NCBI GenBank assembly: GCA_017640665.1
Contig: JAEPQE010000001.1
Location: forward strand, 481,262 to 513,261
Length of the DNA: 32,000 nt
Origin: Balneolaceae bacterium
GTDB taxonomy: Bacteria; Bacteroidota; Rhodothermia; Balneolales; Balneolaceae
Reading direction: 5' to 3'
The notes below the pieces were generated by a model, which saw only the letters and a program-made list of their open reading frames with translations, did not search any database and was not told where the DNA came from. Both the position numbers and the translations under genes were made by a program. Shown one piece after another: positions 8,592 through 30,598 of this stretch. The number at the start of each line of letters is the position of its first letter. The first letter of the stretch is position 1.

Positions 8592-8703
8592 GTTCTAATC
8601 TCACTTTGAAAGAAGTCCTAAATCCTGAGTTCTTATATGAAAAATCAAGAACTTGAGGTAATGCTAAATATTACTTCCAGGCTTTTTACATTCAAAAGAA
8701 ACA

Positions 8704-9819: not shown

Positions 9820-9844
9820 TTAGTCATAATTATTTAAAAATTTA

Positions 9845-10747
9845 TTATTCCGTTATCTTCAGGTAACTAATATTGGTACTCACACCATTTTGAAAGGTCA
9901 CATAAATCCTTCCTGTCTCGGTTGAATAAGCTACTCCGGTAGGGTTTACAAAATTCATTTTTTCTCCTCCAATAATTTCAAATTCTCCACTTACTTTATG
10001 CACCCGATATATGTAACCATCCACATGATGGGCTACATATAAATACTTGTTATCAAGATCTAAATAACCCAGGTTGTAATTAATGTAATTTACCCTGCCT
10101 GGAAGTGTTGCTAGCAATTCCATCTGTATACCAGGAGTGATTTTTATTATTTCACTCTTAAACATATTCGTCGCATACAGATTATTCTCGGAATCAAATT
10201 TAATGGCAGTGGGCCAGTCTAAAAGGCCTTTAGATACATAAATACTCTTTTGGTACTCGGTAGAGTCCGAGTTTGGTGTCATCTTAGAAATCGTAAAAGA
10301 TTGGTTTTCTGTTACAAACAAGTTTCCATCACTGTCAAACGCTAACCCGGAAGGCCCTTGTAAGTTTACTGCAATGGTGTCGATTCTGGTTCCATCAACG
10401 CGGATTATAAATCCTGAATCATAGTTTGTTGCATATATAATATCATTCGATTCATCATAGGCGACAGAACCCAGATTAGTATGCCCATCAATTATAGTTT
10501 CAACTTGATTGCCTGAGTCGAATTTTCTGATTTTATCCCCATCATAATCACTTGAGTAAATCACCTCGTTTGAAGCAATATCAATATCATCTCCACTATC
10601 TGTGATTGAATAGTTTGTAAGTGTTGCTTCGACTGTATCAATTACTTCCACATTAGGTTCTTCGGGGGATGGGGTGATTGGATCTGAGCTTTCGCTACAC
10701 GAAAGAAAAATGAACACCACATAAATAGATTTGATTATATAAGACAT
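9845..10747 (-). CDS. Beta-propeller lipoprotein (NHL/SGL-like repeats)
   Basis: Lipobox (VFIFLSC). Repeated blade motifs: SVAYDESNDIIYATN, GLAFDSDGNLFVTE, AIKFDSENNLYATN, GVAYSTETGRIYVT. It ends 25 nt before the hydrolase gene. Confidence 0.7.
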   Translation of the reverse strand: MSYIIKSIYVVFIFLSCSESSDPITPSPEEPNVEVIDTVEATLTNYSITDSGDDIDIASNEVIYSSDYDGDKIRKFDSGNQVETIIDGHTNLGSVAYDESNDIIYATNYDSGFIIRVDGTRIDTIAVNLQGPSGLAFDSDGNLFVTENQSFTISKMTPNSDSTEYQKSIYVSKGLLDWPTAIKFDSENNLYATNMFKSEIIKITPGIQMELLATLPGRVNYINYNLGYLDLDNKYLYVAHHVDGYIYRVHKVSGEFEIIGGEKMNFVNPTGVAYSTETGRIYVTFQNGVSTNISYLKITE

Positions 10748-10853
10748 TGCCGATTTCTTGTTTGAATTACCGAGGCAATATATCTTATCCGAAATGATAC
10801 TTGTTGACGCAACATGTCGCGTTTTAAGTATTAGTACTACCTTACCTATTCAA

Positions 10854-11987
10854 TTATTTCTTTAAGAAACGTTCTTTATACTCTTTTGGTAAGCATTTTA
10901 CTTCTTTTTTGAATGCCCTGTAAAATGCAGATTTTGATTTGAAGCCTACTTCTTCAGATATAGCTTCTACTGTTAAGTAATCATACTCTCGGTCTTTTAA
11001 GTATTCTTTCGCCTTACTAATTCGATAACTGTTAATAAACTCGGAAAAACTTTGCTGCTCTATCGTATTGATTGATTGAGACAGATAGGTAGTGTTTATA
11101 TTTGTCTCTTCTGATAAATCGTTTAAACTGAAGCCTTTCTTTTGATATAGTTTTTTTTGCTCTATGGTATTTTTAGCGAGGTGATAAAAACTCTCCATCT
11201 TTTCTTCGCCTATTATTGAACCCGTATTTTTACTGCCTTTATTCTTTATAAAACCAACCCTGTTAAGTTCTACACTCTTAACGATCATGTAGCATAAAAG
11301 AATCAAAACGACTGAGTCGAAAACAATAATCAAGGCCCAGTCTATTAATGGCACCTCTATTACCTTATACAAATATATCGATATTGTATTATTAGCTAAA
11401 CGGAAAAGAAAGTATAGCAGAGACACCACTACTAAAATCAGAAACATTTCTTTCTCTTTTTTTCCTGAAGCCCTTAATTGCTGTACAGAGAAATAATTAA
11501 TGGGTATCAAAAACAGAATAGGAACTGCAATCTGACGGACTAATATATGCCAATGATTCCACTGATTTATCGGAGGTGTATATTCGTTTTGAAAGATATT
11601 TCTCAGCCAATCAATCTTTATTTCTACTGGTATATTGGTAATGCTATATAATGAGAATAACGAATCTGCTAATACCGGTAAAATTATAAGTATGTACCAC
11701 CACTTAAGCGTTTTATACCTCAAATAAATTACTTGGATTAAAAGTAATGGATATACTAATAATTGAAAGACCCGCCCAAAACCAAACATTTCCGGAAGTT
11801 TCAGGATTAACTCACTGTAAAAACTTATTGCATAGAATAACTCAATGCTTACTAACAAAACAACTAAAGGAATCAGGTAGTCAGACCAGTTCTTGATTCC
11901 TTTTCTCAGCAACAAAAATGCTGAGAAAAAGACTCCTAATCCAAGACTCATTAAGCCTATAATGATGATGAGGTCAATCCTGTTCAT
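10854..11987 (-). CDS. Membrane-embedded AraC-family transcriptional regulator (N-terminal polytopic TM domain + C-terminal HTH)
   Basis: About 250 aa of hydrophobic helices, then an AraC HTH (LSEETNINTTYLSQSINT... EAISEEVGFKSKSAFYRAFKKEVKCLPKEY). It shares a KWW...LP motif with the paralog at 16246-17367. Confidence 0.85.
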   Translation of the reverse strand: MNRIDLIIIIGLMSLGLGVFFSAFLLLRKGIKNWSDYLIPLVVLLVSIELFYAISFYSELILKLPEMFGFGRVFQLLVYPLLLIQVIYLRYKTLKWWYILIILPVLADSLFSLYSITNIPVEIKIDWLRNIFQNEYTPPINQWNHWHILVRQIAVPILFLIPINYFSVQQLRASGKKEKEMFLILVVVSLLYFLFRLANNTISIYLYKVIEVPLIDWALIIVFDSVVLILLCYMIVKSVELNRVGFIKNKGSKNTGSIIGEEKMESFYHLAKNTIEQKKLYQKKGFSLNDLSEETNINTTYLSQSINTIEQQSFSEFINSYRISKAKEYLKDREYDYLTVEAISEEVGFKSKSAFYRAFKKEVKCLPKEYKERFLKK

Positions 11988-15256: not shown

Positions 15257-16147
15257 TCAATTTTTTGAAAGCCAGCCCCAGGTTGGAAATCCATCGTACG
15301 CCGGGTGATCTGTTAGTCTGGTTTTATTGCTTCCGTCTGCATTCATGATATAAATATCGTGATTATTATCGGTGTTTTGATCTCTAAATTTCCAAACGAT
15401 TTGGGTACCATCCGGAGACCAGCCTAATTCTCCATCTTCTGCATCGTTATCTGTGAGTTTGACGATATCACTCCCATCTGGTTTCATGGTATATATTTCT
15501 AAATCAGCACCATCTCTTTTTGAAGCAAAGGCAATTCGATCTCCACTTGGTGACCATTCCGCATATCTGTCCAGACTGTCACTTTGAGTGATTCGGACCT
15601 GATTGCTTCCATCACGATTCATTATATATAATTCTGGATTTCCATCACGGTTTGAGCGGAACAAAATTTTCTCACTGTCAGGAGACCATCTTGGCTGAGT
15701 GTTTCCCTCGTCATCGAAAGTGAGCTGTGTTTCTTCTGAGCCGTCTGCGTTAACTGTGAAAATCTGGGTTGTTTCACCAACCTCCAGATGATAGCTCAGA
15801 TATTTTCCATTGGGTGAACTATGCATTAAAACGGTAGGGTGCAGTCCTGGTAAGTGCGGGGCACTATCTCCGGTTTTGATATTCAAGCGATGTCGCATCA
15901 CCTCCTGCTCTCCTATCGTTTTAATGTAGAGGATTTCATCTTCTCCAAACCAAACAGGATGATAACTCCAGGTGGTATCATCAGTAAGCTTGGTAATCTT
16001 TTGTGTTAAAGGATTTAATTGGTAAATATTGAATGCAACACTATCTCTGGTTGAATGAAAAATAATTGTCGATTCCTGAGACTTATTTTGTTTTGCAGAG
16101 CAAGCTGTTAACAACAGTAAAATGAAAAGAGTACTGTATTTGATCAT
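15257..16147 (-). CDS. PD40/TolB-like beta-propeller lipoprotein
   Basis: Lipobox (LLLLTAC). Repeated PD40 motifs: PRWSPDSEKILFRSNRDGNPELYIMNRDGSN, AEWSPSGDRIAFASKRDGADLEIYTMKPDGSD, LGWSPDGTQIVW...DIYIMNADGSN. Confidence 0.8.
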   Translation of the reverse strand: MIKYSTLFILLLLTACSAKQNKSQESTIIFHSTRDSVAFNIYQLNPLTQKITKLTDDTTWSYHPVWFGEDEILYIKTIGEQEVMRHRLNIKTGDSAPHLPGLHPTVLMHSSPNGKYLSYHLEVGETTQIFTVNADGSEETQLTFDDEGNTQPRWSPDSEKILFRSNRDGNPELYIMNRDGSNQVRITQSDSLDRYAEWSPSGDRIAFASKRDGADLEIYTMKPDGSDIVKLTDNDAEDGELGWSPDGTQIVWKFRDQNTDNNHDIYIMNADGSNKTRLTDHPAYDGFPTWGWLSKN

Positions 16148-17401: not shown

Positions 17402-18094
17402 CTATAGATTACTCAACTGGTAATAAATCCTGACTACAATTCGTCGGTTTAGTGCTCTGTTCTCTACGATATCATTTCCTTGTCCATCAACATGTGGTAC
17501 TACCGGCTTTGTATCAGCATAACCGGATGCTTTTAAGCGCTCTCCTTCAATTCCTTCTTCTATGAAGTATTTTACTACTCCTGATGCACGCGCTACCGAA
17601 AGCTCCCAGTTGGATGGGAATACAGGTGTGTTAATTGGTACATTATCGGTGTGCCCTTCCACATCCACATTGAATTTATAGAAATCCAACGCATTCATTG
17701 CCTGAGTTACCTTGTCTATAATCTGCTCTCCGGTAGGCAGAAGGTCTGCTTCTCCGGAACCATAAAAGGAACTACTGTTGAAGAACAGCTTAATCCCATC
17801 CCTATCAAGGGTAATATCTACCAGTCCCTGCTGTTTTTCTACCACAAGAAGAGAATCCAGATCTTGTTTAACCTCAGCAAGCGGAGTTCTTACATTTTCT
17901 TCTTTACTGATCTCGGACCTTAAACCTTGCTTCATCTGCTCCCATAGATTTAGATCCACATAAGAAACTGCGATTAGCATCGCGAAGAAAGCGAGTAACA
18001 GGGTGATCATATCACTATAGGTAAGCAACCATTCCTGATCTTCTGAATGATCTTCCTGATCTCTTAGTGTTGATACATTTTTACGTGACAGCAT
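17402..18094 (-). CDS. motB: MotB/OmpA-family stator subunit (TM with conserved Asp + peptidoglycan-binding OmpA-like domain)
   Basis: WLLTYSDMITLLLAFFAMLIAV carries the MotB plug/TM signature with Asp28. C-terminal OmpA-like motifs: VEGHTDNVPI, NWELSVARASGVVKYF, NRALNRRIVV. Confidence 0.9.
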   Translation of the reverse strand: MLSRKNVSTLRDQEDHSEDQEWLLTYSDMITLLLAFFAMLIAVSYVDLNLWEQMKQGLRSEISKEENVRTPLAEVKQDLDSLLVVEKQQGLVDITLDRDGIKLFFNSSSFYGSGEADLLPTGEQIIDKVTQAMNALDFYKFNVDVEGHTDNVPINTPVFPSNWELSVARASGVVKYFIEEGIEGERLKASGYADTKPVVPHVDGQGNDIVENRALNRRIVVRIYYQLSNL

Positions 18095-18105: not shown

Positions 18106-18924
18106 TTAATCGTCATTCTTATTCTCTTTGAAGTCTCTTTGCAAGTACGTACTCAACTTATCCTGAATGTAAAATGATGACTTCTTATCGTTAATCATCA
18201 GAATACCTTCCAAAATAAAATATTCCCTGAATTTATTAAGCTGAGCTACGTTTTTAAGCTTTTCAGCAACGGGATAGAAAATAAAACGTGCTAAAGAAAT
18301 TCCATATAAAGTGGTAATTAAGGCGGCTGCCAGGCCTGGCCCCATTCCGGAGGGATTCTCCAGTTGACCAAGCATTACAATCAGTCCAAAAAGTGTCCCA
18401 AACATCCCGAAAGAAGGCGCAGCTCCCCCCATTGCACGAAGTACATCCACCACAACCAGTTTTCTGAAATATTGCTCTTCTACATGGTTAGCACCGAAAT
18501 CATGAATGTCTTCAGAAGAATAATTCGTACTGAGTAAAGAGAACAAATACCCGGAAACTTCCGTCGAGTATTCGCTTTCTAACTTGGTTAAAGCATTCAC
18601 CCGATCCCCTTTAATCTGGTCGTTCCATTCAAGAATTTTTTCTAAATCCTGAGATAAAGTTTTAGCTGAGCTTTTCGATTGGCTGAAAATCAGAAAAATG
18701 CTTGAAAATGCCTTACCTACGTAACGTGGCTGATAGGTTATAAAAACGGCATTTAGCACACCCCCTAGTACAATAAATAAACTGGGAAGGTTTAAGAATC
18801 TGTAATCTGATAAAGCAGGTATTGAATTGATTATTGCTGTAGCGCCGGTGATCTCTGTGATTCCAAACACCAAAATCCCAACACTAAAAATTACCCCTAA
18901 AAAATTTGTTATTGAAAGCCTCAT
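18106..18924 (-). CDS. motA: MotA/PomA-type stator proton-channel subunit (MotA/TolQ/ExbB superfamily)
   Basis: 272 aa with MotA-type topology: 2 TM, a ~100-aa cytoplasmic loop, 2 TM, and a ~50-aa tail. The conserved core is AAPSFGMFGTLFGLIVMLG...GPGLAAALITTLYGISLARFIFYPVAEKL, followed by EGILMI. Confidence 0.9.
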   Translation of the reverse strand: MRLSITNFLGVIFSVGILVFGITEITGATAIINSIPALSDYRFLNLPSLFIVLGGVLNAVFITYQPRYVGKAFSSIFLIFSQSKSSAKTLSQDLEKILEWNDQIKGDRVNALTKLESEYSTEVSGYLFSLLSTNYSSEDIHDFGANHVEEQYFRKLVVVDVLRAMGGAAPSFGMFGTLFGLIVMLGQLENPSGMGPGLAAALITTLYGISLARFIFYPVAEKLKNVAQLNKFREYFILEGILMINDKKSSFYIQDKLSTYLQRDFKENKNDD

Positions 18925-18925
18925 A

Positions 18926-19543
18926 TTAGTTTTCCTGCCCTCTTATCTCTTCAATTAAGGTTTCTAGTTCCGGAATACTCGGTACCGGAATATTTGGATC
19001 CATTTGCACTGCCCGCGTCCAGTTCGCTTGTGCGGCTGTTATATTTTCAAGCATGAAAAAGATGGTTCCTTTTAATGCGTAAGCATCTGCCGTTTCCTGT
19101 ATTTCAATGGTTTTGTCTACTTCTTCTAAAGCCTGGCGATATTCTCCCAGATAAAATAAATCCTGCGCTTTCCGATAACTGGATAATAAGCTTTGAATAT
19201 CTATTGCCCGGTTTTTAATTAAGGTGGAATCTTTAACCATGATAGAATCTTTTTCGGCGGGAGTCATCCCAGAAAGATCCAAGTAAAATTCATCTTGTGA
19301 AGGATCTAACTGAATTTGAATATTGGAACTACCATTTTTATAATTTACTGTTACTGATTCGCTTCTGGGCTGATTTCCAGTGGCACCTGTATTTGTATTG
19401 GATACTGTTTCCAGTTGCTGAGGAACCTCATTTGCAGACTCTCCCTGTATATTTTCTGATGATTTACAACCAATCAACAGTAACACTAGTGAAAGAATCA
19501 GAGACCCGGTAAATCTAGAAGCGAATGACACCCTGTATTCCAT
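18926..19543 (-). CDS. TPR-repeat lipoprotein
   Basis: Lipobox (LLLIGC). C-terminal TPR-like helices (AQDLFYLGEYRQALEEVDKTIEIQETADAYALKGTIFFMLENITAAQANWTRAVQMDPN). The ORF-track start at 19549 is TTG; the first ATG is at 19543. Either start overlaps the upstream gene by 29-35 nt. Confidence 0.75.
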   Translation of the reverse strand: MEYRVSFASRFTGSLILSLVLLLIGCKSSENIQGESANEVPQQLETVSNTNTGATGNQPRSESVTVNYKNGSSNIQIQLDPSQDEFYLDLSGMTPAEKDSIMVKDSTLIKNRAIDIQSLLSSYRKAQDLFYLGEYRQALEEVDKTIEIQETADAYALKGTIFFMLENITAAQANWTRAVQMDPNIPVPSIPELETLIEEIRGQEN

Positions 19544-20603
19544 ATCCAATCTTGTTATAGGTTATTTTTTGATTGTTTTCCAGTGTTAAGGTTTCTCCCG
19601 AAAGTATGATACTACTGTAGACAGAGAGCCCTAAATTTTCACTTAAATTCAGTACAAGTCCCGGGCGCACTGAAAACATTTCACCTGACTCTTTACCAAG
19701 AGGTGTTTGAACATTCCCATTCAGATATAGCATAATTCTATACAAATTCAGGTCTTCCTTAACAGGAGTAATAGCCTGATAATAGGAGACTCCAAACTCT
19801 AATAAGGTTAAACTAAACTCATTTGCTTCGCGCGCATTTAGACTATGGAGTCCAGCCGTAAAACCTATATAAGCACTGTTCTCACTGTTTAGTGGCTGGC
19901 GATAGGTAAAAGTAGCATGTAAATCTACAACAATGTCTTTGAGTGAACTATCAGTCCCTGCACCGGTAGTATCAGGAATGAAAATAGAGTCTCCGGTTCG
20001 GGCGCCTACACCGAATTTAACCACTAACGTTTTTCCCTTATCAACTTCAATTTCCGGTTCCTTCTGATTTGAAATAAAGCTTTTGGTCCAAACTACCTCT
20101 CTGGAAACCGGATTCATCATACGGATTGCAATAACTAGTCCTTCGGGGACTCTTCTTTGTAAGCTAAGTTCAACCAAACCCTGAACACCGTATTTGCTGG
20201 TAATTTCATTTAATAGCTCAGGAGATACATCAGCTAATGAACGTCCTCTTACATTCAGTATCTGGAGTGTACTGTCGCTCCCCACAATCTTCATTTTGTC
20301 GTTAGGCTCAAGTTCGGGTGGGGAAAGAATCGTTAATCCCGCATACTGACGAAATGCATATTCTACTTCTGACCGGATGTACTCTACTTCTTCCGTAGAA
20401 AAGCGAAAAGAACTATAGTTGATCTTATAAACAGCAATCCTTCGAATATTTACCGGAATATCGTTGAGCTCACTATTCATCTGCCCGATAATCTGATCCA
20501 TAAGATAAGGATCACCACTTTCATGAGATTGTGCTAAACCACTTTGAATTACAATAACGCTTAAAAAGCAGCTGAATAACACCGAGTATAATACCCTTTT
20601 CAT
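19515..20603 (-). CDS. Secreted protein with an N-terminal alpha/beta domain and a beta-barrel-like C-terminal half; probable outer-membrane protein
   Basis: Signal peptide (SVIVIQSGLAQS). The N-terminal half resembles the CsgG/LpoB/FlgO-type pattern by eye (IRRIAVYKINY... GVQGLVELSL...GLVIAIRMMNPVSREVVWTKSF). The C-terminal half has alternating-hydrophobic strands and ends in ...GIQGVIRF, an OMP-type terminal aromatic. Confidence 0.6.
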   Translation of the reverse strand: MKRVLYSVLFSCFLSVIVIQSGLAQSHESGDPYLMDQIIGQMNSELNDIPVNIRRIAVYKINYSSFRFSTEEVEYIRSEVEYAFRQYAGLTILSPPELEPNDKMKIVGSDSTLQILNVRGRSLADVSPELLNEITSKYGVQGLVELSLQRRVPEGLVIAIRMMNPVSREVVWTKSFISNQKEPEIEVDKGKTLVVKFGVGARTGDSIFIPDTTGAGTDSSLKDIVVDLHATFTYRQPLNSENSAYIGFTAGLHSLNAREANEFSLTLLEFGVSYYQAITPVKEDLNLYRIMLYLNGNVQTPLGKESGEMFSVRPGLVLNLSENLGLSVYSSIILSGETLTLENNQKITYNKIGYGIQGVIRF

Positions 20604-20606: not shown

Positions 20607-22430
20607 TCAGGCCTCAGTTTTCATTTTTCTTCTAACTGCATAAAGCATAGTCTTCTGTGCATCTTCAATATCCCTTGCCGGTGCTTCCGATGGATTATCA
20701 ATTTCAGAAAGTATCAACTGCTGCTCACGTTTTGGACGAACACGAAGCACTTTTTCACGAACTGCAGCCGGAGCTGTTCTTAATGCAAGGATGATGGTCT
20801 CGGTAGGTATTTCTTCTAGTGCAGACTGTACAAACTCATCTTTAACTTTTGGAAGGTCATCGAAGCCAATAAAGAATTTCCTGATCTTTTTGGCCAGATT
20901 TAAGTCCTGTTCCGCTATGGAGCGTACATAATCATCCTGCTCTGAAAGAGGTAATGTCTCTATGGTTGTCAGAATGGTATCCACACCATCAGCGGCTACA
21001 TACTTCATATCAGAAACTGAAAGCGCCTTGTTTGAAAAATGAGCTGCAACCTTCTTGTATACCGAAATAGGGATGTTATTAATCTTACCCATTTTAAGAA
21101 GAATGGAAATCCGTTTTTGATCATCCATTTTCTGTAAAATCACTCCAGCACGCTCTCCTGCAACTTGTGCTAGTAAAATAGAAACCATTTCATCAGACTC
21201 TTCTTTCATTAAATGTAGAAGTTGCTGATCCGTAAGTTGATAAATAAAATCAAAAAGATTCGACCCTGAATCCGGCGAGCTTTTTGAAGCTTTAATTTGT
21301 TGGATGCTTCTTCTGAAAGACCGTGCTTCCTCAATTCGCTCATCCAAAGGAATCGGATCTGTGTTTGCTATACCAAAGCGAATCGTTTCGTACGTCTCTG
21401 CATTCAAATATGGTTCAAGCACATTTAACAGCTTCTCATCCACGCTTACAAAACTTCTTACCGCCCTGATAACCCCTTGCTCTTCATCGCTTGCAATCCA
21501 TTGGTGAACTAAGTCTGAAACAACTTTAGGAGTGCTAATACAGGTATTTGTTAAATAGGTCTTATCCTCCTCGAACAAAGCAAGGGTTTTTGCATCAGGC
21601 CCACTACTTTCTTTTTTGCCAGATTCATTTGCTCCCTGATTTGCCATCCCTTCAAACATTGGATATGGGTATGGTAGTGTTTCCTCTTTCTTTGGCTTCC
21701 TCAGGAATGCAAATAGCATCGCGATCAGAAATAATGCAGCCAAAGCAGCTATCACATACATAAGATGTTGAGGGTTATTCCAATCAATCCCTAAAAACAT
21801 ATTTTCTTCTGGTTGTTGAGCAATTTCCTGTGGTACAATTTGTTCTGTCTGAGGCTCTTCTATTTGGGATACAGGTCTTCTTGCATCTTGCTCGATAGCA
21901 CGGGCACTTCTCGGAAAAACCTTCCTCTCCACAGATACTATATCTCCCCTGAACCGGTCTGCATTAGAAATGAGTGTAGCTGCTTCTTCAACAAATTCGA
22001 CATCTTCCTCGCTATAAGAAGTATCTACAAGCACCTTAATATTGAGACGGGTTAATCGAAACCGGGTATCAAAACCCGAAGCTTTCAGGCTATCGCGCTG
22101 AGGCTGAGTACTCGTTCTTAAATTTGGAGGAATAAATGGCAGTCCGGGAAGGTTTTCTAGTTTGATAGGTTCTTCACCTTCTACAACTTCGTAACCCCTG
22201 GCCACCAGAACGCGATCTAAGGTCGCTTTTACATCAACAATGTAGGTACCTGATTTGTAGTAATCAGATAGAGCATTGTCTAATACTACCTCATAGTATT
22301 GTTCATACTTCGTTGCCTCTTCCTGAATATCGGGAGCAACCGATTGTCCGGGCAGAGTTTGTGCATGCGCGACTACTCCGTAGATAGCGATCAAAATGGT
22401 GAGCAGCCATTTTTTAGTTATCTCAACCAT
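20607..22430 (-). CDS. FliF-like/FliG-like fusion: signal or TM1, ~200-aa periplasmic domain with a ring-building-motif-like end, TM, and a full FliG-like (N/M/C) cytoplasmic module
   Basis: aa 1-23 are hydrophobic (LLTILIAIYGVVAHA/Q). aa 125-172, RLTRLNIKVLVDTSYSEEDVEFVEEAATLISNADRFRGDIVSVERKVFP, resemble the last RBM of FliF/SctJ. The TM spans aa 223-243 (LMYVIAALAALFLIAMLFAFL). A FliG_M-like segment is MKEESDEMVSILLAQVAGERAGVILQKMDDQKRISILLKMGKI. A FliG_C-like segment is FIGFDDLPKVKDEFVQSALEEIPTETIILALRTAPAAVREKVLRVRPKREQQLILSEI...DIEDAQKTMLYAVRR. Confidence 0.8.
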   Translation of the reverse strand: MVEITKKWLLTILIAIYGVVAHAQTLPGQSVAPDIQEEATKYEQYYEVVLDNALSDYYKSGTYIVDVKATLDRVLVARGYEVVEGEEPIKLENLPGLPFIPPNLRTSTQPQRDSLKASGFDTRFRLTRLNIKVLVDTSYSEEDVEFVEEAATLISNADRFRGDIVSVERKVFPRSARAIEQDARRPVSQIEEPQTEQIVPQEIAQQPEENMFLGIDWNNPQHLMYVIAALAALFLIAMLFAFLRKPKKEETLPYPYPMFEGMANQGANESGKKESSGPDAKTLALFEEDKTYLTNTCISTPKVVSDLVHQWIASDEEQGVIRAVRSFVSVDEKLLNVLEPYLNAETYETIRFGIANTDPIPLDERIEEARSFRRSIQQIKASKSSPDSGSNLFDFIYQLTDQQLLHLMKEESDEMVSILLAQVAGERAGVILQKMDDQKRISILLKMGKINNIPISVYKKVAAHFSNKALSVSDMKYVAADGVDTILTTIETLPLSEQDDYVRSIAEQDLNLAKKIRKFFIGFDDLPKVKDEFVQSALEEIPTETIILALRTAPAAVREKVLRVRPKREQQLILSEIDNPSEAPARDIEDAQKTMLYAVRRKMKTEA

Positions 22431-22677: not shown

Positions 22678-25044
22678 CTACCTGCTAACAATTTCGAATT
22701 TATGCTCCAGTCGCTCTCCGTATTCATCTACAAGAGTTAATCTATACTTGCCTGGTTCTGGAGAAATAGAAATTTGATGGAAATGATTGGTCTCCCCTAA
22801 AAACTGATCGTTAAGATGCCAATATACTTTCGTATCCGGTTGCCTATGTGCAACTTCAAATACCGCTTTTCCGGAGTTACCATCTAATTCCATCGGCACA
22901 TAAATGCTCGATGCTCTGAATGGGTAAATAAGCTTCATCGATAAGTCCTGCTGCTCACATCCAACAGCTACCGGTGGAAGGTTTTTATATTCAGGATGAG
23001 ATTTTCGGTAATACCACTCCTGATCAGCTGGTAAAACAAACCACTTTTTGGTCTTTAGTTGTGAAACCTCAGTACACGCACTATTTACACGGTGAGTTTC
23101 CAAATTATTTACGTGTACTAACTTATGATACGGACAAATCTTCGCTTTCAAGCCCGATTTGGGAACTGAGACCGTATCAACTTTTTCACAATATTGCCCA
23201 GCACGATGACCACTAAGTGCGCACACTTCAGTTTTTTCCAATTCATAAACAGGTTCGTTAAACCAACTGGTTTCCGGAAGTGAATTAAAGACATCAAATA
23301 GAACCGGACCTGCCGTTTTAATCCCAGTCAGATTGGGTCTTCCCTCTCCATCTGCATTACCTACCCATACACCTACAACATATTCGGGAGTAACTCCTAC
23401 CGCCCATCCGTCTCTGTGACCATAGCTTGTTCCGGTTTTCCAGGCTACTTTCCGGGCATTATCAAACCTCCTCCAAAAAGATTCTTCTTCCGGTCGCACA
23501 ACTTCTTTCATTGCTTCGAAAGTACTCCAGACCGCACCACTACTTAGTTGAAACCCTAACTCAGCGATATTCGAATTCTCAAAATCAATACTCTTGAATA
23601 GGTTGGATTCCTTCGGGTTACCGGCATCATATTCATTCAATTGATAAGCAAGAGAAGCATAGGTTGACGTTATTTCAATTAGTGAAGCCTCGGCACCGCC
23701 CAGAATGAGTGTAAGCCCGTAGTGTTCCGGAGCTTTGGTGATGGTGCTCAATCCAAACTCATTGAGGTAATGATGGAACTTCGGAACACTAAACTCCTGA
23801 AGCATATATACCGCAGGTACATTCAGTGATCTTGCAAGTGCCTCTGAAGCCGGTACTGCTCCTGAATAGGTTCTTGTGAAGTTTTTTGGAGAATACTCTG
23901 AAAACCGTGAAGGAACATCTGGCACGAGTGTATTAGGTAACAACTCGCCTTGGTTCAGTTTTAGCGAATACAAAAGTGGTTTAAGAATACTACCAGTGCT
24001 TCTCGGAGCGACTACTACATCTACCTGATTGCTGTGCTCACTCCCGGAATTCGTATTTCCAACATAGGTGATTATGGACTGAGATTTAACATCCAGAACA
24101 ACCACCCCCATGTTATATATTCCATTCGCCTTTAGTTGCTGGTGGTGATATTCAACAATACCATTCACTCGCTGCTGGATTTTTTGATCGATTCCTGATT
24201 GGACTTTCTTTCCGGATTGTTCTCCTGAATAGAACCGCGCAAGATAATGGCGAGCGGCATTCGGTAATTTATGTGGCTTTTTAGGTAGTGGCTCAAGAAC
24301 TGCAAGTTCAAAGGTTAATGAGTCTATCTTCCCTTGTTGGTAGAGTCTTTCCAACAGGCGGTCACGTTTGGCTTTAAGAACGTCTCTGTTTCGGCCAGGA
24401 TGGATAAGCGCCGGACTATTGGGAAGTATTGCAAGCATGGTGGCTTCTGCCCAGGAAAGACTTTCCGGACTTCTTCCAAAATATCTCCAGGATGCGGCTT
24501 CAAGGCCAACAACATTACCGCCAAAAGGTGCATGAGCAGCATATAGACTCATGATCTCTTCTTTTGAATAGGAAAGCTCAAGTCGGGTAGCCTGAATCAT
24601 CTCTTTGAGTTTTTCCAAGACCGTTCTATCCGGGTTTTGTTTGGCCAGTCTGATGACTTGCATGGTAAGCGTACTTGCCCCACTAATAACTTCGCCAGCT
24701 TCAAAGTTTTGAACAACAGCTCGGCCTATCGCTACCGGATCTATTCCAGGGTGGCGATAAAAGTTATTATCCTCAAACTCTATAATTGCTGTTTTGAACT
24801 TTTCAGGAATCTCTTTTGATACCGGAAACCTCCACTGATGATCGTCAGCAATTTTAGCCCCCAGTAATTCTCCATGTTTATCTTCCAGCACAGTACTGTA
24901 GCTGGAGTTGAATAACGGGTATGGAAGGGAGTGATAGTAAACCATTAGTAGTAACAAAGTAAAAGCCATATAAAACCCTCCTCTCAACCTCCTCCAATGG
25001 AGGAAAGGCTTTTTCCCTGGCTTGTTTTCTTTTCTGGTATGCAT
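22678..25044 (-). CDS. pbpC: Penicillin-binding protein 1C (bifunctional glycosyltransferase/transpeptidase)
   Basis: GT51 motif EDNNFYRHPG, transpeptidase motifs STGSILKP (SxxK) and WKTGTS (KTG), and the C-terminal PbpC-type domain. It starts 28 nt after the alpha-2-macroglobulin stop. Confidence 0.95.
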   Translation of the reverse strand: MHTRKENKPGKKPFLHWRRLRGGFYMAFTLLLLMVYYHSLPYPLFNSSYSTVLEDKHGELLGAKIADDHQWRFPVSKEIPEKFKTAIIEFEDNNFYRHPGIDPVAIGRAVVQNFEAGEVISGASTLTMQVIRLAKQNPDRTVLEKLKEMIQATRLELSYSKEEIMSLYAAHAPFGGNVVGLEAASWRYFGRSPESLSWAEATMLAILPNSPALIHPGRNRDVLKAKRDRLLERLYQQGKIDSLTFELAVLEPLPKKPHKLPNAARHYLARFYSGEQSGKKVQSGIDQKIQQRVNGIVEYHHQQLKANGIYNMGVVVLDVKSQSIITYVGNTNSGSEHSNQVDVVVAPRSTGSILKPLLYSLKLNQGELLPNTLVPDVPSRFSEYSPKNFTRTYSGAVPASEALARSLNVPAVYMLQEFSVPKFHHYLNEFGLSTITKAPEHYGLTLILGGAEASLIEITSTYASLAYQLNEYDAGNPKESNLFKSIDFENSNIAELGFQLSSGAVWSTFEAMKEVVRPEEESFWRRFDNARKVAWKTGTSYGHRDGWAVGVTPEYVVGVWVGNADGEGRPNLTGIKTAGPVLFDVFNSLPETSWFNEPVYELEKTEVCALSGHRAGQYCEKVDTVSVPKSGLKAKICPYHKLVHVNNLETHRVNSACTEVSQLKTKKWFVLPADQEWYYRKSHPEYKNLPPVAVGCEQQDLSMKLIYPFRASSIYVPMELDGNSGKAVFEVAHRQPDTKVYWHLNDQFLGETNHFHQISISPEPGKYRLTLVDEYGERLEHKFEIVSR

Positions 25045-25072
25045 TCTTAAATCATTACTCTTACATCTTCAA

Positions 25073-28000
25073 TTACTTTGGTGCCATCACCTTCACCCAT
25101 GTTCCGGGAGTTCTTGCGCTTATCGACTCATCATACATAGCCTCGGTGCTTATTGCAGGCAGATAGAACTCACCCAAATAACTGGCATTTAATTGAATTC
25201 TGAATACCTTTGTCGCTGTGCTTTTTAAATCAAAATAGGTATACACCCGATCGTCGCGAATATCCTGATAATCAAAACTGGAGGTAGGCTCGCTGAATGA
25301 TTCTCCATCCATACGTGTATTTCGAATTTCCCATCCGGAAGGAAAAATCTGAGTTAACGCCATTTCTGCATAATCGCCACGTAGTCCGGGATTTCTTATA
25401 GAAACTTCTGCTACGAAATCAGTTCCCTGTTCAATTTCGTTTGGGTTGATCTCATCCCCATCCAAATCAATAAAACGAATTTTCTGAACAAGGCTGTTTG
25501 AAGATGATACATTGTCTCCAATCAAAGGTGTCCCTTCCAGAATCAACCGAGCGAAAAGAGTGCCCTCAGATTTGTTCTCCAGCTCCAGTTCGTTTTCTGA
25601 ATATTCATCCATATTTAACGGAATTTGGGTAACAAAAGCAGAAGTCCTTATTGACCCCTCCCTGTCTCCATTTAAAATAAAGGAAGCGATCATTTCTCCA
25701 GACGTATTAAACCGATCCAGAAATTTGGAGATCGCAATTAACGAGTAAGCAGCGGTTTGTGTACTCAACCAACGTTTAGAGCTTAGCTGTACCGAAATAT
25801 CTCTGGCTAGTACCGTTGCTTCTTCCCTTCGGTTCATCAAAGAAAGTGTTTCTAAGATCATCGCCTTATCTCTTAGCGAAGAGCCAAAATTACCTGAAAG
25901 TTCTTTGTAATCAGGAACTGAAGTTGTAGCCCCTTCCAAAATCTTGTTTGCTGCTTCTGTTTGACCAATTAATACATAGGCAGCCGCCAACCTCCATTTC
26001 GCCTGAACGGTTAAATCATCTCGTTCCCTAAAACGATTCATTGCACCAAGCTCGGGAGTATTCGCCAAGGCAAGAGTGTATAACCTGTAAGCCTGGGTTA
26101 AATCCGATCTTCTGTAATCAGATTCAGTCCAGTTGCGGGCATGAGACTGCTGAAAACGATTGATACTTCTCATTAGATTTGGGGGAACGTAATATCCAAG
26201 CTTTTGCGCTTCCAGCAAAAAATGATAGCCATAGCTTGTCGCCCATGAATTTGCGTTTTCATATCCAGGCCAATAGCCGAGCCCGCCACTGGGAGTTAAG
26301 AAGCGGCTGAGTCGTGTAATCGCGCCTTCAATATTATTCTCTACTCTGGATTGCTGCTCATCGCTGATATCCATCACATCCGATATAAATAATTGCGGGA
26401 ATGCCGAAGAAGTTGTCTGCTCGATGCATCCATGCGGGTAACGAAGCAAATAATCCAGTCTTCTTCCAAAATCAATGGGTGGAATTCTGGAAACTTCCAA
26501 CATAGCCGTGTTGGTCCCAATCATTCCCTGCGGATCAAAATTGAGCGACCAGGTTTCACTTTCGTCCAAAACTTCTTCTTTGATGTCAACGAAAGGAGTG
26601 TTGGGATTTCGAACGGCGATTTCGATTTCGTGGTATGCCGTTTCTTGGCCACTTCGCACTTCAACCCGAACGGTACCCACCCCGATTTCGGACTTCGTTT
26701 TAAGAGTAAAATTAACCAACTGATCCCCGGGCTCGTCAAATCGAATGGTGCTGGAAGCCTCTCCCTGAATCTCAAAAATATCGCTTGCTTCCAGTAGAAC
26801 ACTTACATTCCTAACATCTTCTTTCATTGCAAACACACTTACCGGAAGATGCACCGTTTCGGAGGGACCAAGCACTCTGGGCAGGGTAGTGAGTACCATT
26901 ACAGGTTTTCGAACGGGAGTTGTTTTCTCAACCTGACCATAAGCTCCGTCTTGACCTGCAATCACCATGGTTCGTACCGAGCCTATATAATTAGGAATAG
27001 AAATAGTGTGCTGATTGGTTTCGCCAGGTCTGAGATAATACGGACCTTTGAACCTAACCATAGGCTTGAATCGGTTTGCCTCATTTAGCGGATCAAGTTC
27101 CTGCTCCGAACCGTCTCCCCCAACGGATAAAATTCTGGAGATATTCCCGGAGAAACTGCCGGTCACAAACTCGTACATGTCCCATGTTTTCACCCCCAAA
27201 GCTTCGCGAGCATAAAAAACATCGTGAGGTTCAGGTGTTTTGAAATTGGTCAGATCAAGCAAACCTTCGTCGACCATGGCAATGGTATAAGTCATCGCCC
27301 TTCCATCTGATTCGCTGATATTAATCGTAGTATTTGTTTCCGGTTTAAATTCTACCGCTGTTTCTATCTGGGGATTCAACCTTGTAAACGAATCTTCAAT
27401 GGTTATTGGAATAACCCCGTACATCCTGATCGGTAAATCGTTTTCTTTTTGGGCATGTTGCTGCACGTGCATCACATGAGCATAAATGGTAGGACTCATC
27501 GAGGCATCTGCAAAGAAACTGAATGTCGTCTCATCTTTCTGGCCATCAATCCAGGTTGATTTCAAAATTTTTGATCCGGTTTCGAGGCTCACCAATATTT
27601 TACTTCCTTCACTACTCGGAATATTCAGTGTTACTTCTTCATCTACATTGTACGTTTCTTTGTCTGAGCTGAAGGTAAGTCGGGCCGGACTTACCGAAGT
27701 ACCCCTGCCTCTCCACCAACTGAAATACACAATTTGACTAGCTGAATGCCTGCCTTTTGGATCAACGATCCGAACGAGATATCTACCCCCATCTTCTCCT
27801 TGTGGCAGTCTTAGATTGAGCTCGTTGGTCCCATCAGATCGTGTAGTTATTTCTCCATCAAGAACTTTCCGAACTTCTCTGCGCTCAAAAAAACTGCTGA
27901 TATTTTCACGGCCTCGTTCCCACCACCAACGCCATCCAATTCGATAGACTTCGTATTCCAGTTCTTTAAATCCAACCGGGTTTCCTTCTTCATCTACCGA

Positions 28001-30598
28001 GGCTACTTCGAAGGTATGGGCTTCCCTGCGGGACAACCAATTACCGTAACTGTTCTCATCTGTTACGGGAGCTTTAATTCCTACCAATGTCTTAAAAGGA
28101 TAATAGAACGTACTTGCTCTGCCCACACTAAAGCTTCCTGAGGGCTCAAAAACCCGTAAATTCAGGTTTACTCTGAATCGCGCCGGACCTTGATCGATCG
28201 CACCAAACTGATATTCAAACTCCCTCTCTCCTGAAGCACTCAAGGCGCCTTCGAAAATCTGCTCCGGAGTCGAGGAAAACGAAACACTTTCATCGTTAAA
28301 ACTGAATCCCCGAAAATCATCGAACACAGGTTCTGAACTTGTTAAACTCATTTCAACATCAGCTTTCAGGTTTTTGGCTATAGCTCCGTGCAACCATTGT
28401 GAACTTAATTTCGCTTCAAGGCTACGGGTTCTGGCAGTTACTTTTTCATCCTCAAAGTCAACCTCTACTTTTAATCGATTTGGTTTAACCGATTCTATCT
28501 TCAACGTTTTGTTAAATGAAAGTGCCCCTACCCGAGCGGTTAACCGCCAGTTTCCGGTAGGAGCCTGTTTTTCGGTTTGTCCCCGATACACATAAAATCC
28601 GTTCAGTGAAGCCGTGTATGTTTCCCTGTCAACAAGTTGCCCGGAAGGGTCACGAAGTTCAAAAGTAACCGGATGATCTTCAGGTAATGTTTCATTCTCG
28701 TCCTCAAGAATTAATGATACAAATAAGGTATCACCGGGTCGCCAAACACCGCGTTCCCCATACAAAAATCCTTTCACACCTTGCTGTACTGTTGCTCCTG
28801 AAACATCGAAATCAGTTACAGAAAGAGAAGTGCCGTCATCTAATCTTAGATAACCTTTTTGATTGTCTAGCTCAGCAACTGCGTAGTATGGAGTTCGATC
28901 GGCCTTAAGGGTTGCTTTGCCTTCTGCATCGGTTTGAGATTCGGCTATTTTCTGCTGCTGAAAATCAAATATAGAAACCAAAACTCCCGTTTTAGGTTGG
29001 GCCGAAATCAAATCAGTAACAAAAAAATGTAACTGATCATCCTGTCCCTTTTTTGCAATCAATCCAAGATCAGAAGCCAACACGTTCCTGCTCACTCTTC
29101 GGTTTGCCATATAATAAGAGACTGCGCATGGGTTATCCCGATCCCTCCAATTGTAATTTCTGGGATAGTAGTACGAACTGAAGCTATTCCAATACGCCTC
29201 CTCCTCTTCCGCACTCAACTCCCAGCTTCGATTAGTAATCTGTTCGGAAATAATTGTATTTCCTGCTTCACAGGGATATACTGCCTGATGTGCTCTGAAC
29301 CCAATTTCAACCATATAAATAGCTCCGGGTTTTGGTTTAATCAACTTAGAGAGATCCAATGCGTAATTATTCCAGGCCCCGGGATCCAGATTCCCCAGAG
29401 ATGAAAGTGGAATCACGCCACCAAAAACTGGGCGACCAACTTTTCGGATGTTCCACTGATTAATGCCAGATAGATTCTGCTCTTGCAGAAACTGCCCCAC
29501 ATTACTTTCAAAAATCCGGGTCACCTGAACATCAACCGCACCCAGGCTAACTGCTTTAAACGGCAACAGTAAATCTTCTGACCTCGGGATAATAACTCCC
29601 TTTCCCAGCAAGGCAACTTCGGGTTTAGGTTGTGAGAACCGGACTTCACGCCGATGCGTAATGCCCAGTCTTGTCCCTGAAGCACTTCGTATTGCCTCGT
29701 TTATCACAAGTACTTCAGGAGTGCTTCTTCGGGCTCGTGGATTAATGGTGAGCTTGTTCTCATTCACAATAAAATTGAGTTCTACTGGTCTTTCAAGCGT
29801 AATAAGCCCATTCAAATTTTGAGAAACATCCAGAGGATCAGAAAAAGTAAGCTCTATTCTTGGGTTTTGATCTCGAAAAACTCGGGTTTCCAGAAGCTCA
29901 AAAGCCCCTTGCTCAAGCACTTCAATTATCTTTTCCCCTTTTGATGAAGCCATGATCGGAGTTCCATTCCATTGAACAACCACTTCTGAAGCACTCTGCT
30001 TTCGGGTGATCCCAGAGATCTGGAACTGATGTTCTTTTTGTGAGTTATTTTGAGACCATGAAACAGATAGTGCATCCCCATCCTGTACAGCTTTTACGGT
30101 TCGTTTCATATTATCCAACGCTGCCCTATCAGCGGTATAAGCAACTCCCTTCACTACCTGATCGTTTTTGTTTCCCGGCAATGGTTCAATCCCTGAAAAC
30201 TCAATTTCTATATCTTGTTTAATCGTCGAAAAACTGAAAACAAACGTTTGCTTTTCCTCAGGAAGCTCCAACACTTTTCCTAAATTAACCCTTGTCGTGT
30301 ATTCCGTATCGTTTTTTAATGGGGATGAAGGTTTAAACACAACAGTACGGTCATTCACCCACTGAGCCTCTCCTTTTATGGATGGGGTAAACTCGAGTAA
30401 CTCATTTGTGATTTTATCTGATACATCTTTTGAAAAAGAAACCGCTACATCATCAAATCTACTTATCTCTCCTGAAGTATATCCTGAGATATATTCTTCG
30501 AAATCGACCGGTACCGAGAATCCGTTTCTTTCTGGTTTAGCACAGGATATGATTACAATTAACAACAATAGAAACAGAGAATGACTAGTGCGGAGCAT
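25073..30598 (-). CDS. yfhM: Bacterial alpha-2-macroglobulin family lipoprotein (YfhM/ECAM-like) with an intact thioester
   Basis: 1841 aa with a lipobox (VIISC) and the thioester motif RYPHGCIEQTTSSAFPQ. It has a long series of MG-like beta-sandwich segments and sits in the canonical pairing with pbpC. Confidence 0.95.
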   Translation of the reverse strand: MLRTSHSLFLLLLIVIISCAKPERNGFSVPVDFEEYISGYTSGEISRFDDVAVSFSKDVSDKITNELLEFTPSIKGEAQWVNDRTVVFKPSSPLKNDTEYTTRVNLGKVLELPEEKQTFVFSFSTIKQDIEIEFSGIEPLPGNKNDQVVKGVAYTADRAALDNMKRTVKAVQDGDALSVSWSQNNSQKEHQFQISGITRKQSASEVVVQWNGTPIMASSKGEKIIEVLEQGAFELLETRVFRDQNPRIELTFSDPLDVSQNLNGLITLERPVELNFIVNENKLTINPRARRSTPEVLVINEAIRSASGTRLGITHRREVRFSQPKPEVALLGKGVIIPRSEDLLLPFKAVSLGAVDVQVTRIFESNVGQFLQEQNLSGINQWNIRKVGRPVFGGVIPLSSLGNLDPGAWNNYALDLSKLIKPKPGAIYMVEIGFRAHQAVYPCEAGNTIISEQITNRSWELSAEEEEAYWNSFSSYYYPRNYNWRDRDNPCAVSYYMANRRVSRNVLASDLGLIAKKGQDDQLHFFVTDLISAQPKTGVLVSIFDFQQQKIAESQTDAEGKATLKADRTPYYAVAELDNQKGYLRLDDGTSLSVTDFDVSGATVQQGVKGFLYGERGVWRPGDTLFVSLILEDENETLPEDHPVTFELRDPSGQLVDRETYTASLNGFYVYRGQTEKQAPTGNWRLTARVGALSFNKTLKIESVKPNRLKVEVDFEDEKVTARTRSLEAKLSSQWLHGAIAKNLKADVEMSLTSSEPVFDDFRGFSFNDESVSFSSTPEQIFEGALSASGEREFEYQFGAIDQGPARFRVNLNLRVFEPSGSFSVGRASTFYYPFKTLVGIKAPVTDENSYGNWLSRREAHTFEVASVDEEGNPVGFKELEYEVYRIGWRWWWERGRENISSFFERREVRKVLDGEITTRSDGTNELNLRLPQGEDGGRYLVRIVDPKGRHSASQIVYFSWWRGRGTSVSPARLTFSSDKETYNVDEEVTLNIPSSEGSKILVSLETGSKILKSTWIDGQKDETTFSFFADASMSPTIYAHVMHVQQHAQKENDLPIRMYGVIPITIEDSFTRLNPQIETAVEFKPETNTTINISESDGRAMTYTIAMVDEGLLDLTNFKTPEPHDVFYAREALGVKTWDMYEFVTGSFSGNISRILSVGGDGSEQELDPLNEANRFKPMVRFKGPYYLRPGETNQHTISIPNYIGSVRTMVIAGQDGAYGQVEKTTPVRKPVMVLTTLPRVLGPSETVHLPVSVFAMKEDVRNVSVLLEASDIFEIQGEASSTIRFDEPGDQLVNFTLKTKSEIGVGTVRVEVRSGQETAYHEIEIAVRNPNTPFVDIKEEVLDESETWSLNFDPQGMIGTNTAMLEVSRIPPIDFGRRLDYLLRYPHGCIEQTTSSAFPQLFISDVMDISDEQQSRVENNIEGAITRLSRFLTPSGGLGYWPGYENANSWATSYGYHFLLEAQKLGYYVPPNLMRSINRFQQSHARNWTESDYRRSDLTQAYRLYTLALANTPELGAMNRFRERDDLTVQAKWRLAAAYVLIGQTEAANKILEGATTSVPDYKELSGNFGSSLRDKAMILETLSLMNRREEATVLARDISVQLSSKRWLSTQTAAYSLIAISKFLDRFNTSGEMIASFILNGDREGSIRTSAFVTQIPLNMDEYSENELELENKSEGTLFARLILEGTPLIGDNVSSSNSLVQKIRFIDLDGDEINPNEIEQGTDFVAEVSIRNPGLRGDYAEMALTQIFPSGWEIRNTRMDGESFSEPTSSFDYQDIRDDRVYTYFDLKSTATKVFRIQLNASYLGEFYLPAISTEAMYDESISARTPGTWVKVMAPK

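Follow-up and report, generated by a model that had tools for sequence, protein, structure and literature searches.

A 32,000-nucleotide stretch of a Balneolaceae genome (GenBank assembly GCA_017640665.1, contig JAEPQE010000001.1, positions 481,262 to 513,261 of the forward strand; hereafter the window) was found to carry an open reading frame (ORF) on the reverse strand (20607..22430) whose 607-amino-acid (aa) product, with near certainty, naturally joins the C-terminal third of FliF to a whole FliG. The parts taken from FliF are the third ring-building motif (RBM3), the second transmembrane helix (TM2) and the C-terminal tail, and those from FliG are its N-terminal, middle and C-terminal domains (FliG_N, FliG_M and FliG_C). 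A first-pass annotation, made from the sequence and its translated ORFs, had described a minimised FliF fused to a full FliG, and both halves were supported here, the FliF half by a structure match, family profiles and Pfam and the FliG half by Pfam and family profiles. The protein is 100% identical to a protein of a Balneolaceae metagenome-assembled genome (MAG) that is annotated 'hypothetical protein'. Across the family, the public annotations read 'hypothetical protein', 'FliG C-terminal domain-containing protein' or 'FliG'.

The fusion gene is the first of a conserved block of five genes that ends in a flagellar-type stator pair. The first-pass annotation did not include this context, which gives the gene an interest beyond that of an odd fusion. 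We consider it, on balance, somewhat more probable than otherwise that the block encodes an autonomous, ion-driven rotor-stator module that is coupled to the outer envelope. The positions given below are those of the window, and the features of the fusion gene and of its block all lie on the reverse strand (-).

Topology and domains of the fusion protein

A Kyte-Doolittle scan of the fusion protein identified two hydrophobic segments and no more, at aa ~8-26 and aa 223-243. The second had a mean hydropathy of up to 2.7 and is directly followed by RKPKK, which fits the positive-inside rule. The predicted topology comprises an exported N-terminus, ~200 periplasmic residues, one membrane helix and ~360 cytoplasmic residues, and the hydropathy agrees with the segments assigned at the first pass (signal or first transmembrane segment aa 1-23, periplasmic part aa 24-221, transmembrane helix aa 223-243, cytoplasmic part aa 244-607). 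The likeness to the topology of FliF that had been drawn from these segments held for the exported part and the transmembrane helix, but probably not for the first segment, which looks like a cleaved signal peptide rather than a first transmembrane helix. This putative signal peptide (aa 1-23; 22362..22430) ends in …VAHA|Q, and the A-x-A|Q junction is present in nearly all of the family members. Because the conserved junction suggests a cleavable signal peptide, the mature fusion protein is probably single-pass, unlike the two-pass FliF. In Bacteroidota, cleavage by signal peptidase I typically leaves a glutamine at the N-terminus (the 'Q-rule'). As a separate observation, glutamine follows the predicted signal-peptidase site in almost all of the ~85 family members, which hints at pyroglutamate N-termini, and the 362-aa protein encoded by the neighbouring gene has the same A|Q junction.

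AlphaFold analysis of the periplasmic domain (aa 24-185; 21876..22361), using a 70-sequence alignment and no templates, gave a confident model (pLDDT 86.5, pTM 0.68) with the elements in the order helix, long hairpin, loop, long hairpin, helix and strand. When the model was compared with the PDB using Foldseek, the 18 best matches were all FliF S-ring/RBM3-collar structures from Vibrio and Salmonella and not an unrelated fold (E = 1.4e-7 to 1.2e-5, probability 1.00, TM-score ~0.5, with 0.51/0.56 for the top match). The high root-mean-square deviation of these matches probably reflects the angle of the long hairpins. The next matches were Ohr/OsmC-type proteins, SpoIIIAG, PrgK and EscJ, with E = 1e-3 to 3e-2 (2e-3 to 3e-2 for SpoIIIAG 5wc3, PrgK 2y9j and EscJ 1yj7). 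For aa 24-222, an alignment of only 26 Balneolaceae sequences gave a pLDDT of 42 and no usable model.

A profile of the family (alignment A4; 79 members, 20-80% identical to the window protein) matched FliF of Salmonella over residues 404-560 (E = 5e-5) and that of Vibrio (E = 2.7e-3). The matched part covers the final elements of RBM3, TM2 and the C-terminus that binds FliG, and FliF was still the best PDB match (E = 0.0082) when the profile was cut to window aa 100-335. The link to FliF in PDB sequences was reached by the broad-family profile only, and an N-domain profile limited to Balneolaceae gave no relevant match among the PDB sequences (best match enolase, E = 1.4). Pfam YscJ_FliF_C (PF08345) was detected in 27 of the 79 family members, with a best E of 7.1e-8 (33.5 bits vs a cutoff of 23.8). 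A Calditrichota member matched this model above the gathering threshold at aa 115-174, within the periplasmic domain; the window protein itself did not match it (Pfam, E <= 0.1).

The most conserved motif of the family is the 'RGD-x-V-x-V...F' pattern, in which R161, G162, D163, F172 and P173 are invariant or nearly so. Its RGD (aa 161-163; 21942..21950) lies ahead of the last RBM3 strand, with D163 invariant and R161 and G162 at least 90% conserved. The family profile aligned this end of the periplasmic domain to Salmonella FliF 'KRGDTLNVVNSPF'. The family pattern 'dedveFi…DesRGDrvnv…FP' falls opposite 'ADQMKQIEDLTREAMGFSDKRGDTLNVVNSPF' of the same protein, and the motif itself opposite 'KRGDTLNV' in Salmonella FliF and 'GRGDLLNV' in Vibrio FliF. 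Outside this motif, Y57, P95-G-L-P98 and F146 are the near-invariant periplasmic residues. The ring-building signature read here at the first pass (RL-x-IKVLVD...RGD-x-V-x-V....F) is real, but it is part of an RBM3 with a beta-collar and not of an RBM1 or RBM2 of the SctJ-like kind. No Pfam YscJ_FliF match was found for RBM1 or RBM2, and the periplasmic region measures ~200 aa, 162 aa of which form the one RBM3-like domain. The periplasmic part is a single RBM (RBM3 plus beta-collar) from which RBM1 and RBM2 are absent, within the earlier estimate of one or two RBMs at most in ~200 aa. The PGLP motif (aa 95-98; 22137..22148) is located in the loop joining the two long hairpins, a lower-confidence loop of the model (model residues 61-90), and is near-invariant across 70-79 sequences that are 20-40% identical. 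This loop may represent the partner-binding tip of the collar.

The collar domain is followed by an acidic, proline-rich periplasmic linker of low conservation and variable length, with FLGIDWN at its end (aa 186-222; 21765..21875), and then by the transmembrane helix (aa 223-243; 21702..21764), which aligns to FliF TM2 in the profile alignment. A poorly conserved, variable cytoplasmic linker (aa 244-298; 21537..21701) takes the place of the low-complexity FliF stretch between TM2 and the C-terminal helix. The equivalent of the C-terminal FliG-binding helix of FliF was located by the family profile alignment at aa 299-317 (STPKVVSDLVHQWIASDEE; 21480..21536). Its family consensus, 'gnPkkvaqvlksWieedee', aligns to the C-terminal end of Salmonella FliF, DNDPRVVALVIRQWMSNDHE, ending at residue 560, and also to Vibrio 'ANEPELAAQVVKNWMND'. 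The P…W motif is conserved, with W311 nearly invariant, and the tail alignment covers the last 36 residues of Salmonella FliF. This extreme C-terminus of FliF is the segment known to bind FliG_N.

The FliG half comprises a FliG_N-like domain (aa 318-390; 21261..21479), FliG_M (aa 391-490; 20961..21260) and FliG_C (aa 491-607; 20610..20960). Pfam analysis of the window protein identified FliG_C at aa 504-604 (E = 5.2e-20, 72 bits vs a cutoff of 23.3) and FliG_M at aa 402-474 (E = 1.6e-7, 31.9 bits vs a cutoff of 25). An ungapped alignment of 210 residues joins the fusion protein to T. maritima FliG, and the family profile matched T. maritima FliG_MC (1lkv) with E = 2.4e-41. The likeness to T. 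maritima FliG noted at the first pass is borne out by these matches. The window protein alone had no Pfam match for FliG_N at the expected place. In the family profile, positions 314-602 align as one stretch to residues 12-325 of the full-length Aquifex FliG, including the 'KAA-LL-L' region of FliG_N, and positions 313-375 align to the FliG_N of an engineered Vibrio fusion (620-682). Over the whole of this engineered fusion (8z4d), the profile aligned in three colinear stretches, namely FliF 435-594, FliG_N 620-682 and FliG_MC 723-932. A Fibrobacterales member has a Pfam FliG_N match at aa 316-376 (E = 0.0023), and across the 79 family members Pfam detected FliG_C in 79, FliG_M in 78 and FliG_N in 68. 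The FliG model TIGR00207 aligned over its positions 107-319 with 82 bits, far below the equivalog cutoff of 226.7.

The residues that carry torque in FliG are partly retained. In Salmonella numbering, K264 corresponds to R551, R281 to R568, D288 to S575 and D289 to E576, the last three in the torque helix (aa 566-578, PKREQQLILSEID; 20697..20735), which was located by ungapped alignment to Salmonella and T. maritima FliG. Position 568 (E. coli R281) is arginine in 79 and lysine in 7 of the 87 family members, and position 576 (D289) is glutamate in 38 of the 87. The alignment of the C-terminal charged residues with FliG accordingly agrees with the altered acidic pair (SEID) reported at the first pass, with the arginine retained and the acidic pair partly kept. 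The EHPQR motif for FliM binding is degenerate: EHPQ…R of T. maritima aligns to E411-S-D-E…K446, and the family consensus reads 'E-s-d-g'.

The five-gene block, its stator and its distribution

The block consists, in order and on the same strand, of the genes for the fusion protein, a 362-aa secreted protein, a tetratricopeptide repeat (TPR) lipoprotein, MotA and MotB, with gaps or overlaps of 1-35 nt. The MotA/PomA-type stator A subunit (272 aa; 18106..18924) was identified with Pfam MotA_ExbB and NCBIfam. The NCBIfam models for MotP, PomA and MotA gave E = 1e-33 to 1e-26 vs ~1e-3 for TolQ/ExbB, and comparison with Vibrio PomA gave E = 1.6e-22. Because the NCBIfam equivalog cutoffs were not reached (114 vs 394 bits), the protein is regarded as a divergent member of the flagellar stator family. 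Position 105, which corresponds to PomA R88 and E. coli MotA R90, is lysine or arginine in 44/44 orthologues, and E116 and E118 are kept in 39/44 and 37/44, respectively. The MotB-type stator B subunit (230 aa; 17402..18094; Pfam MotB_plug and OmpA, NCBIfam MotD/MotS/MotB) has a plug, the sequence 'LLTYSDMITLL' with the channel Asp28, and an OmpA-like peptidoglycan-binding domain. Judged by these sequences, the pair is a dedicated flagellar-type stator, with interface charges conserved on both the stator and the rotor partner.

The gene for the 362-aa protein (19515..20603) begins 3 nt past the fusion gene. The product is probably a beta-barrel of the outer membrane that bears a periplasmic domain at its N-terminus; it carries a signal peptide with the A|Q junction, and all of its orthologues end in an aromatic residue (…RF). 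Pfam OMP_b-brl was weakly matched by 4 of 16 orthologues, and no other Pfam or PDB sequence match was found. The protein is syntenic in Balneolaceae and in a Fibrobacterales locus, and genes likened to it by size and position only occupy its place in a Calditrichota locus (L048) and in L050. The TPR lipoprotein (207-aa ORF; 18926..19549) has the lipobox LLIGC, with the cysteine conserved in Balneolaceae, and two TPRs at aa ~117-192 (Pfam TPR_1/TPR_2). Its BLASTP homologues were found in every Balneolaceae locus with enough sequence, in L042, and in the gene beside a variant of the fusion gene without FliG (L046; see below). In L044 and L045 the best matches were large upstream ORFs that bear TPRs, and the small downstream proteins are only presumed orthologues. 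The ORF as called mechanically begins with a TTG and runs 35 nt into the upstream gene; the probable start is the ATG at 19543, two codons further on, where the orthologues begin. A scan for a promoter and terminator of the operon gave no useful signal, and shuffled sequences had more promoter-like sites than the operon itself.

Two functional assignments for the block were considered and rejected. Zorya (ZorAB) or another defence system was not supported by PADLOC, which gave no ZorA or other match, and only a generic similarity of MotB to ZorB was seen. A functional link to the upstream alpha-2-macroglobulin and PBP1C genes, or to the downstream AraC and TolB-like genes, was set aside, as synteny with them is confined to the closest relatives.

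A locus scan using one genome per species yielded 41 loci, labelled Balneolaceae, Balneola or Gracilimonas save for a few generic labels ('Rhodothermia', 'Bacteroidota', 'bacterium'). The isolates that carry the block include Gracilimonas tropica DSM 19535 (L024) and Balneola sp. EhC07. The five genes were in order and their frames intact in 40/40 Balneolaceae loci with enough sequence, at fusion protein identities down to 48%; the flanking genes (alpha-2-macroglobulin, PBP1C, AraC and TolB-like) were retained in the closest relatives only. A search of 1.84 billion representatives with the N-domain profile returned 125 clusters. The representatives of ~85 of these clusters (50% identity) have the full architecture and are 17-38% identical to the window protein. 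Named sources of the family include Fibrobacterales, Fibrobacteraceae and Calditrichota MAGs, and the five-gene block was also seen on a Fibrobacterales contig, a Calditrichota contig and a 1.36-Mb contig. More distant members have four genes, for the fusion, a small protein of 155-160 aa, MotA and MotB, and these follow a gene for a barrel-like or large protein and lie near cargo genes of the type IX secretion system (T9SS). The small protein occupies the place of the TPR lipoprotein, to which it is likened by position only.

The ratio of nonsynonymous to synonymous substitution rates (dN/dS) of the whole fusion gene relative to the nearest orthologue (dS = 0.54) was 0.033. By region, it was 0.039 in the RBM3 domain, 0.006 in the FliF tail with FliG_N, 0.010 in FliG_MC and 0.06-0.11 in the periplasmic and cytoplasmic linkers, with the highest value, 0.11, in the periplasmic one. 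The gene is under strong purifying selection and is no decaying relic.

Two kinds of divergent locus were also recorded. In a short variant without FliG (250-385 aa), an N-terminal membrane segment is followed by a LysM domain, the same RBM3-like domain and a C-terminal transmembrane helix, with almost no cytoplasmic part. Examples are P0165 (L046 733-1656), P0196 (L052 824-1762) and P0236 (L051 431-1588), alongside ~20 other clusters. A small TPR protein like that of the operon follows in 2/3 inspected loci, which are on short contigs. In L045 (1-11937) and L049 (1-11710), the fusion, TPR, MotA and MotB genes are preceded by a conserved gene set that encodes several small proteins, a DUF4402 protein and one of ~1000 aa with Ig-like/CarboxypepD_reg and TPR matches. 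The MotB of L049 is 501 aa long and carries a SPOR domain. This suggests that the L045/L049 subfamily is linked to a surface structure or to the septum.

Proposed mechanism and alternative explanations

No flagellar genes were found in the window beyond the five-gene block, nor among the called genes within 7-10 kb on either side of the inspected distant loci. For G. tropica, motility is given as 'None' (PMC5167729). KEGG flagellar-assembly genes were reported in Aliifodinibius and not in Balneola, G. tropica DSM 19535 or other genera (PMC9909488). Together with the loss of the EHPQR motif, the local context and the literature on G. tropica favour a non-flagellar role.

In the mechanism that we propose, the RBM3 domains would assemble, after cleavage of the signal peptide, into an S-ring-like ring above the inner membrane, and the fused FliG domains would make a second ring beneath it. 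Stator units of the MotA5B2 type, encoded downstream in the block, would anchor to the peptidoglycan via MotB and use ion flow (channel Asp28) to turn the ring, pushing on the FliG torque helix via conserved charge pairs (MotA K105 with FliG E576, and MotA E116/E118 with FliG R568). The machine would have neither a FliM/FliN switch nor an export gate, rod, hook or filament and, as FliM and FliN are absent, would not switch. The output would be taken up in the periplasm, most likely by the TPR lipoprotein, joined in most lineages by the outer-membrane barrel protein, with contact possibly made at the near-invariant PGLP tip of the collar. A stripped-down flagellar rotor-stator core would thereby energise an outer-envelope process in Balneolaceae and in other members of the Fibrobacterota-Chlorobiota-Bacteroidota (FCB) group.

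The domain identities, the colinearity with FliF and FliG, the conservation of the operon, the purifying selection and the conserved interface residues are observations; the formation of a ring, its rotation, the periplasmic partners and the physiological output are what we infer from them. The more specific proposal, of a free-standing ion-driven rotary machine made of a FliF S-ring, FliG and MotAB in non-flagellated bacteria, which delivers torque to an outer-membrane complex, is a serious possibility that we put a little short of probable. Several points weigh against the proposed mechanism. Only half of the torque helix's acidic pair remains (D288 is replaced by S, and D289 is E in 38/87), and RBM1 and RBM2, which in FliF help to build the M-ring and house the export gate, are absent. 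The outer-membrane protein and the TPR lipoprotein are assigned their putative roles by synteny only, and the former is not universal among the loci. The lack of a flagellum in the host rests on two papers and the local context, and Balneola vulgaris, a species of the same family, is reported to be flagellated (PMC5167729).

The alternative that survives best, although we regard it as rather unlikely, is a non-rotary force transducer of the TonB/TolA kind. FliG would then be a cytoplasmic handle tugged by the rotating MotA pentamer, and the RBM3 domain, as a small oligomer or monomer, would relay a pull or conformational signal to the TPR lipoprotein and the outer-membrane barrel, for envelope maintenance or transport of the Tol-Pal type in lineages that have no canonical Tol-Pal. 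The layout of the block, with genes for a 5:2 motor, a TPR protein and an outer-membrane protein, resembles that of Tol-Pal/CpoB and of TPR-tolQ-tolR-transducer operons, and no identifiable tol-pal loci are reported in Bacteroidetes (PMC12204202). The short variant that has no FliG lies beside the same TPR gene, which indicates that the periplasmic domain and the TPR protein can work without FliG, and the torque-helix acidic pair is kept only in part. The match of the periplasmic domain is, however, specifically to the ring-building RBM3/collar of FliF, with the ring former SpoIIIAG next, behind the Ohr/OsmC-type proteins. Furthermore, the three FliG domains, which are known to build the ring and receive torque, are all under very strong purifying selection, and the stator is of the flagellar MotA/PomA type and not of the TolQ/ExbB type.

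It is improbable that the fusion is instead an MS-ring/C-ring component of a genuine but reduced flagellum whose other genes lie elsewhere in the genome. In favour of this are the flagellar type of the stator and the working, ring-forming FliF-FliG fusions that have been engineered in Salmonella and Vibrio. However, the fusion lacks RBM1/RBM2, which in FliF form the inner ring around the export gate, and has lost the FliM-binding motif. No flagellar gene lies beside the block in ~47 loci from at least three phyla, where the conserved neighbours are instead the outer-membrane protein and the TPR lipoprotein, and the carrier G. tropica is non-motile and reported to be without flagellar assembly genes. 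A functionless gene in decay, left over from a flagellar system since lost, would fit the suggestion of a flagellated Balneolaceae ancestor with gradual gene loss (PMC9909488) and the frequency of 'half motors' in non-motile genomes (PMC12199754), but is effectively refuted, and scarcely credible, given a dN/dS of 0.03 overall and ~0.01 in FliG, five intact frames in all 40 Balneolaceae loci with enough sequence, and an architecture kept across several phyla at 17-38% identity.

Taken as a whole, the system stands a substantial chance of being a machine of a new kind. The flagellum is the only setting in which FliG and the FliF ring are known. If the rotor-stator reading is true, this would be the first non-flagellar use of FliG and FliF as a rotor, and the system would descend by reduction from the flagellar motor or, with lower probability, be a relative of the pre-flagellar motor that has survived. 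The operon is conserved and strongly selected, holds that rotor-stator core and nothing else flagellar, and occurs in cultivable bacteria reported to be non-motile. It makes testable whether an RBM3/FliG ring assembles and turns alone, what the minimal stoichiometry is, and what a flagellar-type motor can drive in the envelope; the natural fusion also offers a simple single-polypeptide rotor for structural work. Genome-based motility predictors should not take these genes, annotated 'FliG' or 'hypothetical', as evidence of a flagellum.

Surrounding genes and comparison with known systems

Several other features of the window were noted. Upstream of the block (22678-30598, -), the gene for a PBP1C-type penicillin-binding protein (788 aa) is immediately preceded by one for a bacterial alpha-2-macroglobulin (1841 aa, MG/bait/TED domains), and the two are a known co-occurring pair. 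Two genes downstream of MotB (15257-16147, -), a TolB-like beta-propeller is encoded without a Tol-Pal operon (TIGR02800 E = 1e-40, below the cutoff); its synteny with the operon is seen in the nearest relative only. A Balneolaceae TolB-like protein is discussed in PMC12204202. Further along (7030-11987, -), a Bacteroidota-type tyrosine integrase (Arm-DNA-bind_5 and Phage_integrase) adjoins a serine beta-lactamase-family protein, an NHL-repeat protein and an AraC regulator, which may mark the border of an integrated element. No tRNA genes were found across the window. At the left edge (1-3095, +), an ORF that runs off the window, with no stop from base 3, joins in one frame the C-terminal half of an RND permease (AcrB/CusA-type) and an OEP/TolC-like domain, and is followed by genes for a CusB/HlyD-type adaptor, an AraC regulator and a P-type ATPase. 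A pump fused to its outer-membrane factor would be unusual.

The closest comparison for the fusion protein is with FliF and FliG themselves. In Salmonella and Vibrio, FliF-FliG fusions made by engineering work and assemble into rings (PMC6079021, PMC10941966; PDB 8z4d). The present protein has the same order of parts as these engineered fusions (8z4d/8z4g), namely RBM3, TM2, C-terminal FliG-binding helix, FliG_N, FliG_M and FliG_C. It shares with FliF and FliG the RGD motif, the tryptophan-containing C-terminal helix and the torque-helix arginine, and it shares with the flagellar motor a MotA/PomA-type stator partner whose charged loop residues are conserved. Unlike FliF and FliG, it is without RBM1/RBM2 (~200 aa), its N-terminal segment looks cleaved, and EHPQR is lost; it is moreover a natural fusion, in linkage with a TPR lipoprotein throughout and with an outer-membrane protein in most cases. 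Unlike at flagellar loci, no genes for FliM/FliN, export apparatus, rod, hook or filament lie near the block.

SpoIIIAG and the SctJ/PrgK/EscJ rings share the RBM-type ring-building fold with an inserted beta-hairpin region. Their match to the periplasmic domain is far weaker than that of FliF RBM3; they have no sequence-profile link to the family, and neither a FliG fusion nor a stator. As in TolQR-TolA-Pal/CpoB, ExbBD-TonB, GldLM, AglRQS and ZorAB, an ion-driven motor of the MotA/MotB family is encoded here beside envelope proteins, and the task presumed to be common to it and other 5:2 motors is the delivery of inner-membrane energy to the outer envelope. Unlike in those motors, the stator is of the flagellar MotA/PomA group and not of the TolQ/ExbB group, and the presumed driven partner is FliG/FliF, known elsewhere from flagella only.

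In full-text searches of the literature, no description of the present family was found, and only engineered fusions and a chlamydial fusion came to light; the literature on Fibrobacter and FliG returned only unrelated rumen and gut microbiome studies. The chlamydial protein is the only natural FliF-FliG fusion that we found described, and its architecture is different. According to passages of Bergeron 2016 (PeerJ, PMC4768692), the fusion of the Chlamydiaceae is ~330 aa long, with RBM2 and one further RBM and without the SpoIIIAG-like RBM3. It carries a FliG_M-like region only, and therefore no torque helix, and is thought to work with the injectisome; MotAB are not mentioned in those passages. 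As described there, it has in common with the present protein that a single natural polypeptide joins a shortened periplasmic part of FliF, a transmembrane helix and a cytoplasmic FliG-like part, and both come from organisms regarded as non-flagellated. With RBM3 only, a full FliG and its own stator, the present fusion is the complement of the chlamydial one as it appears in that source.

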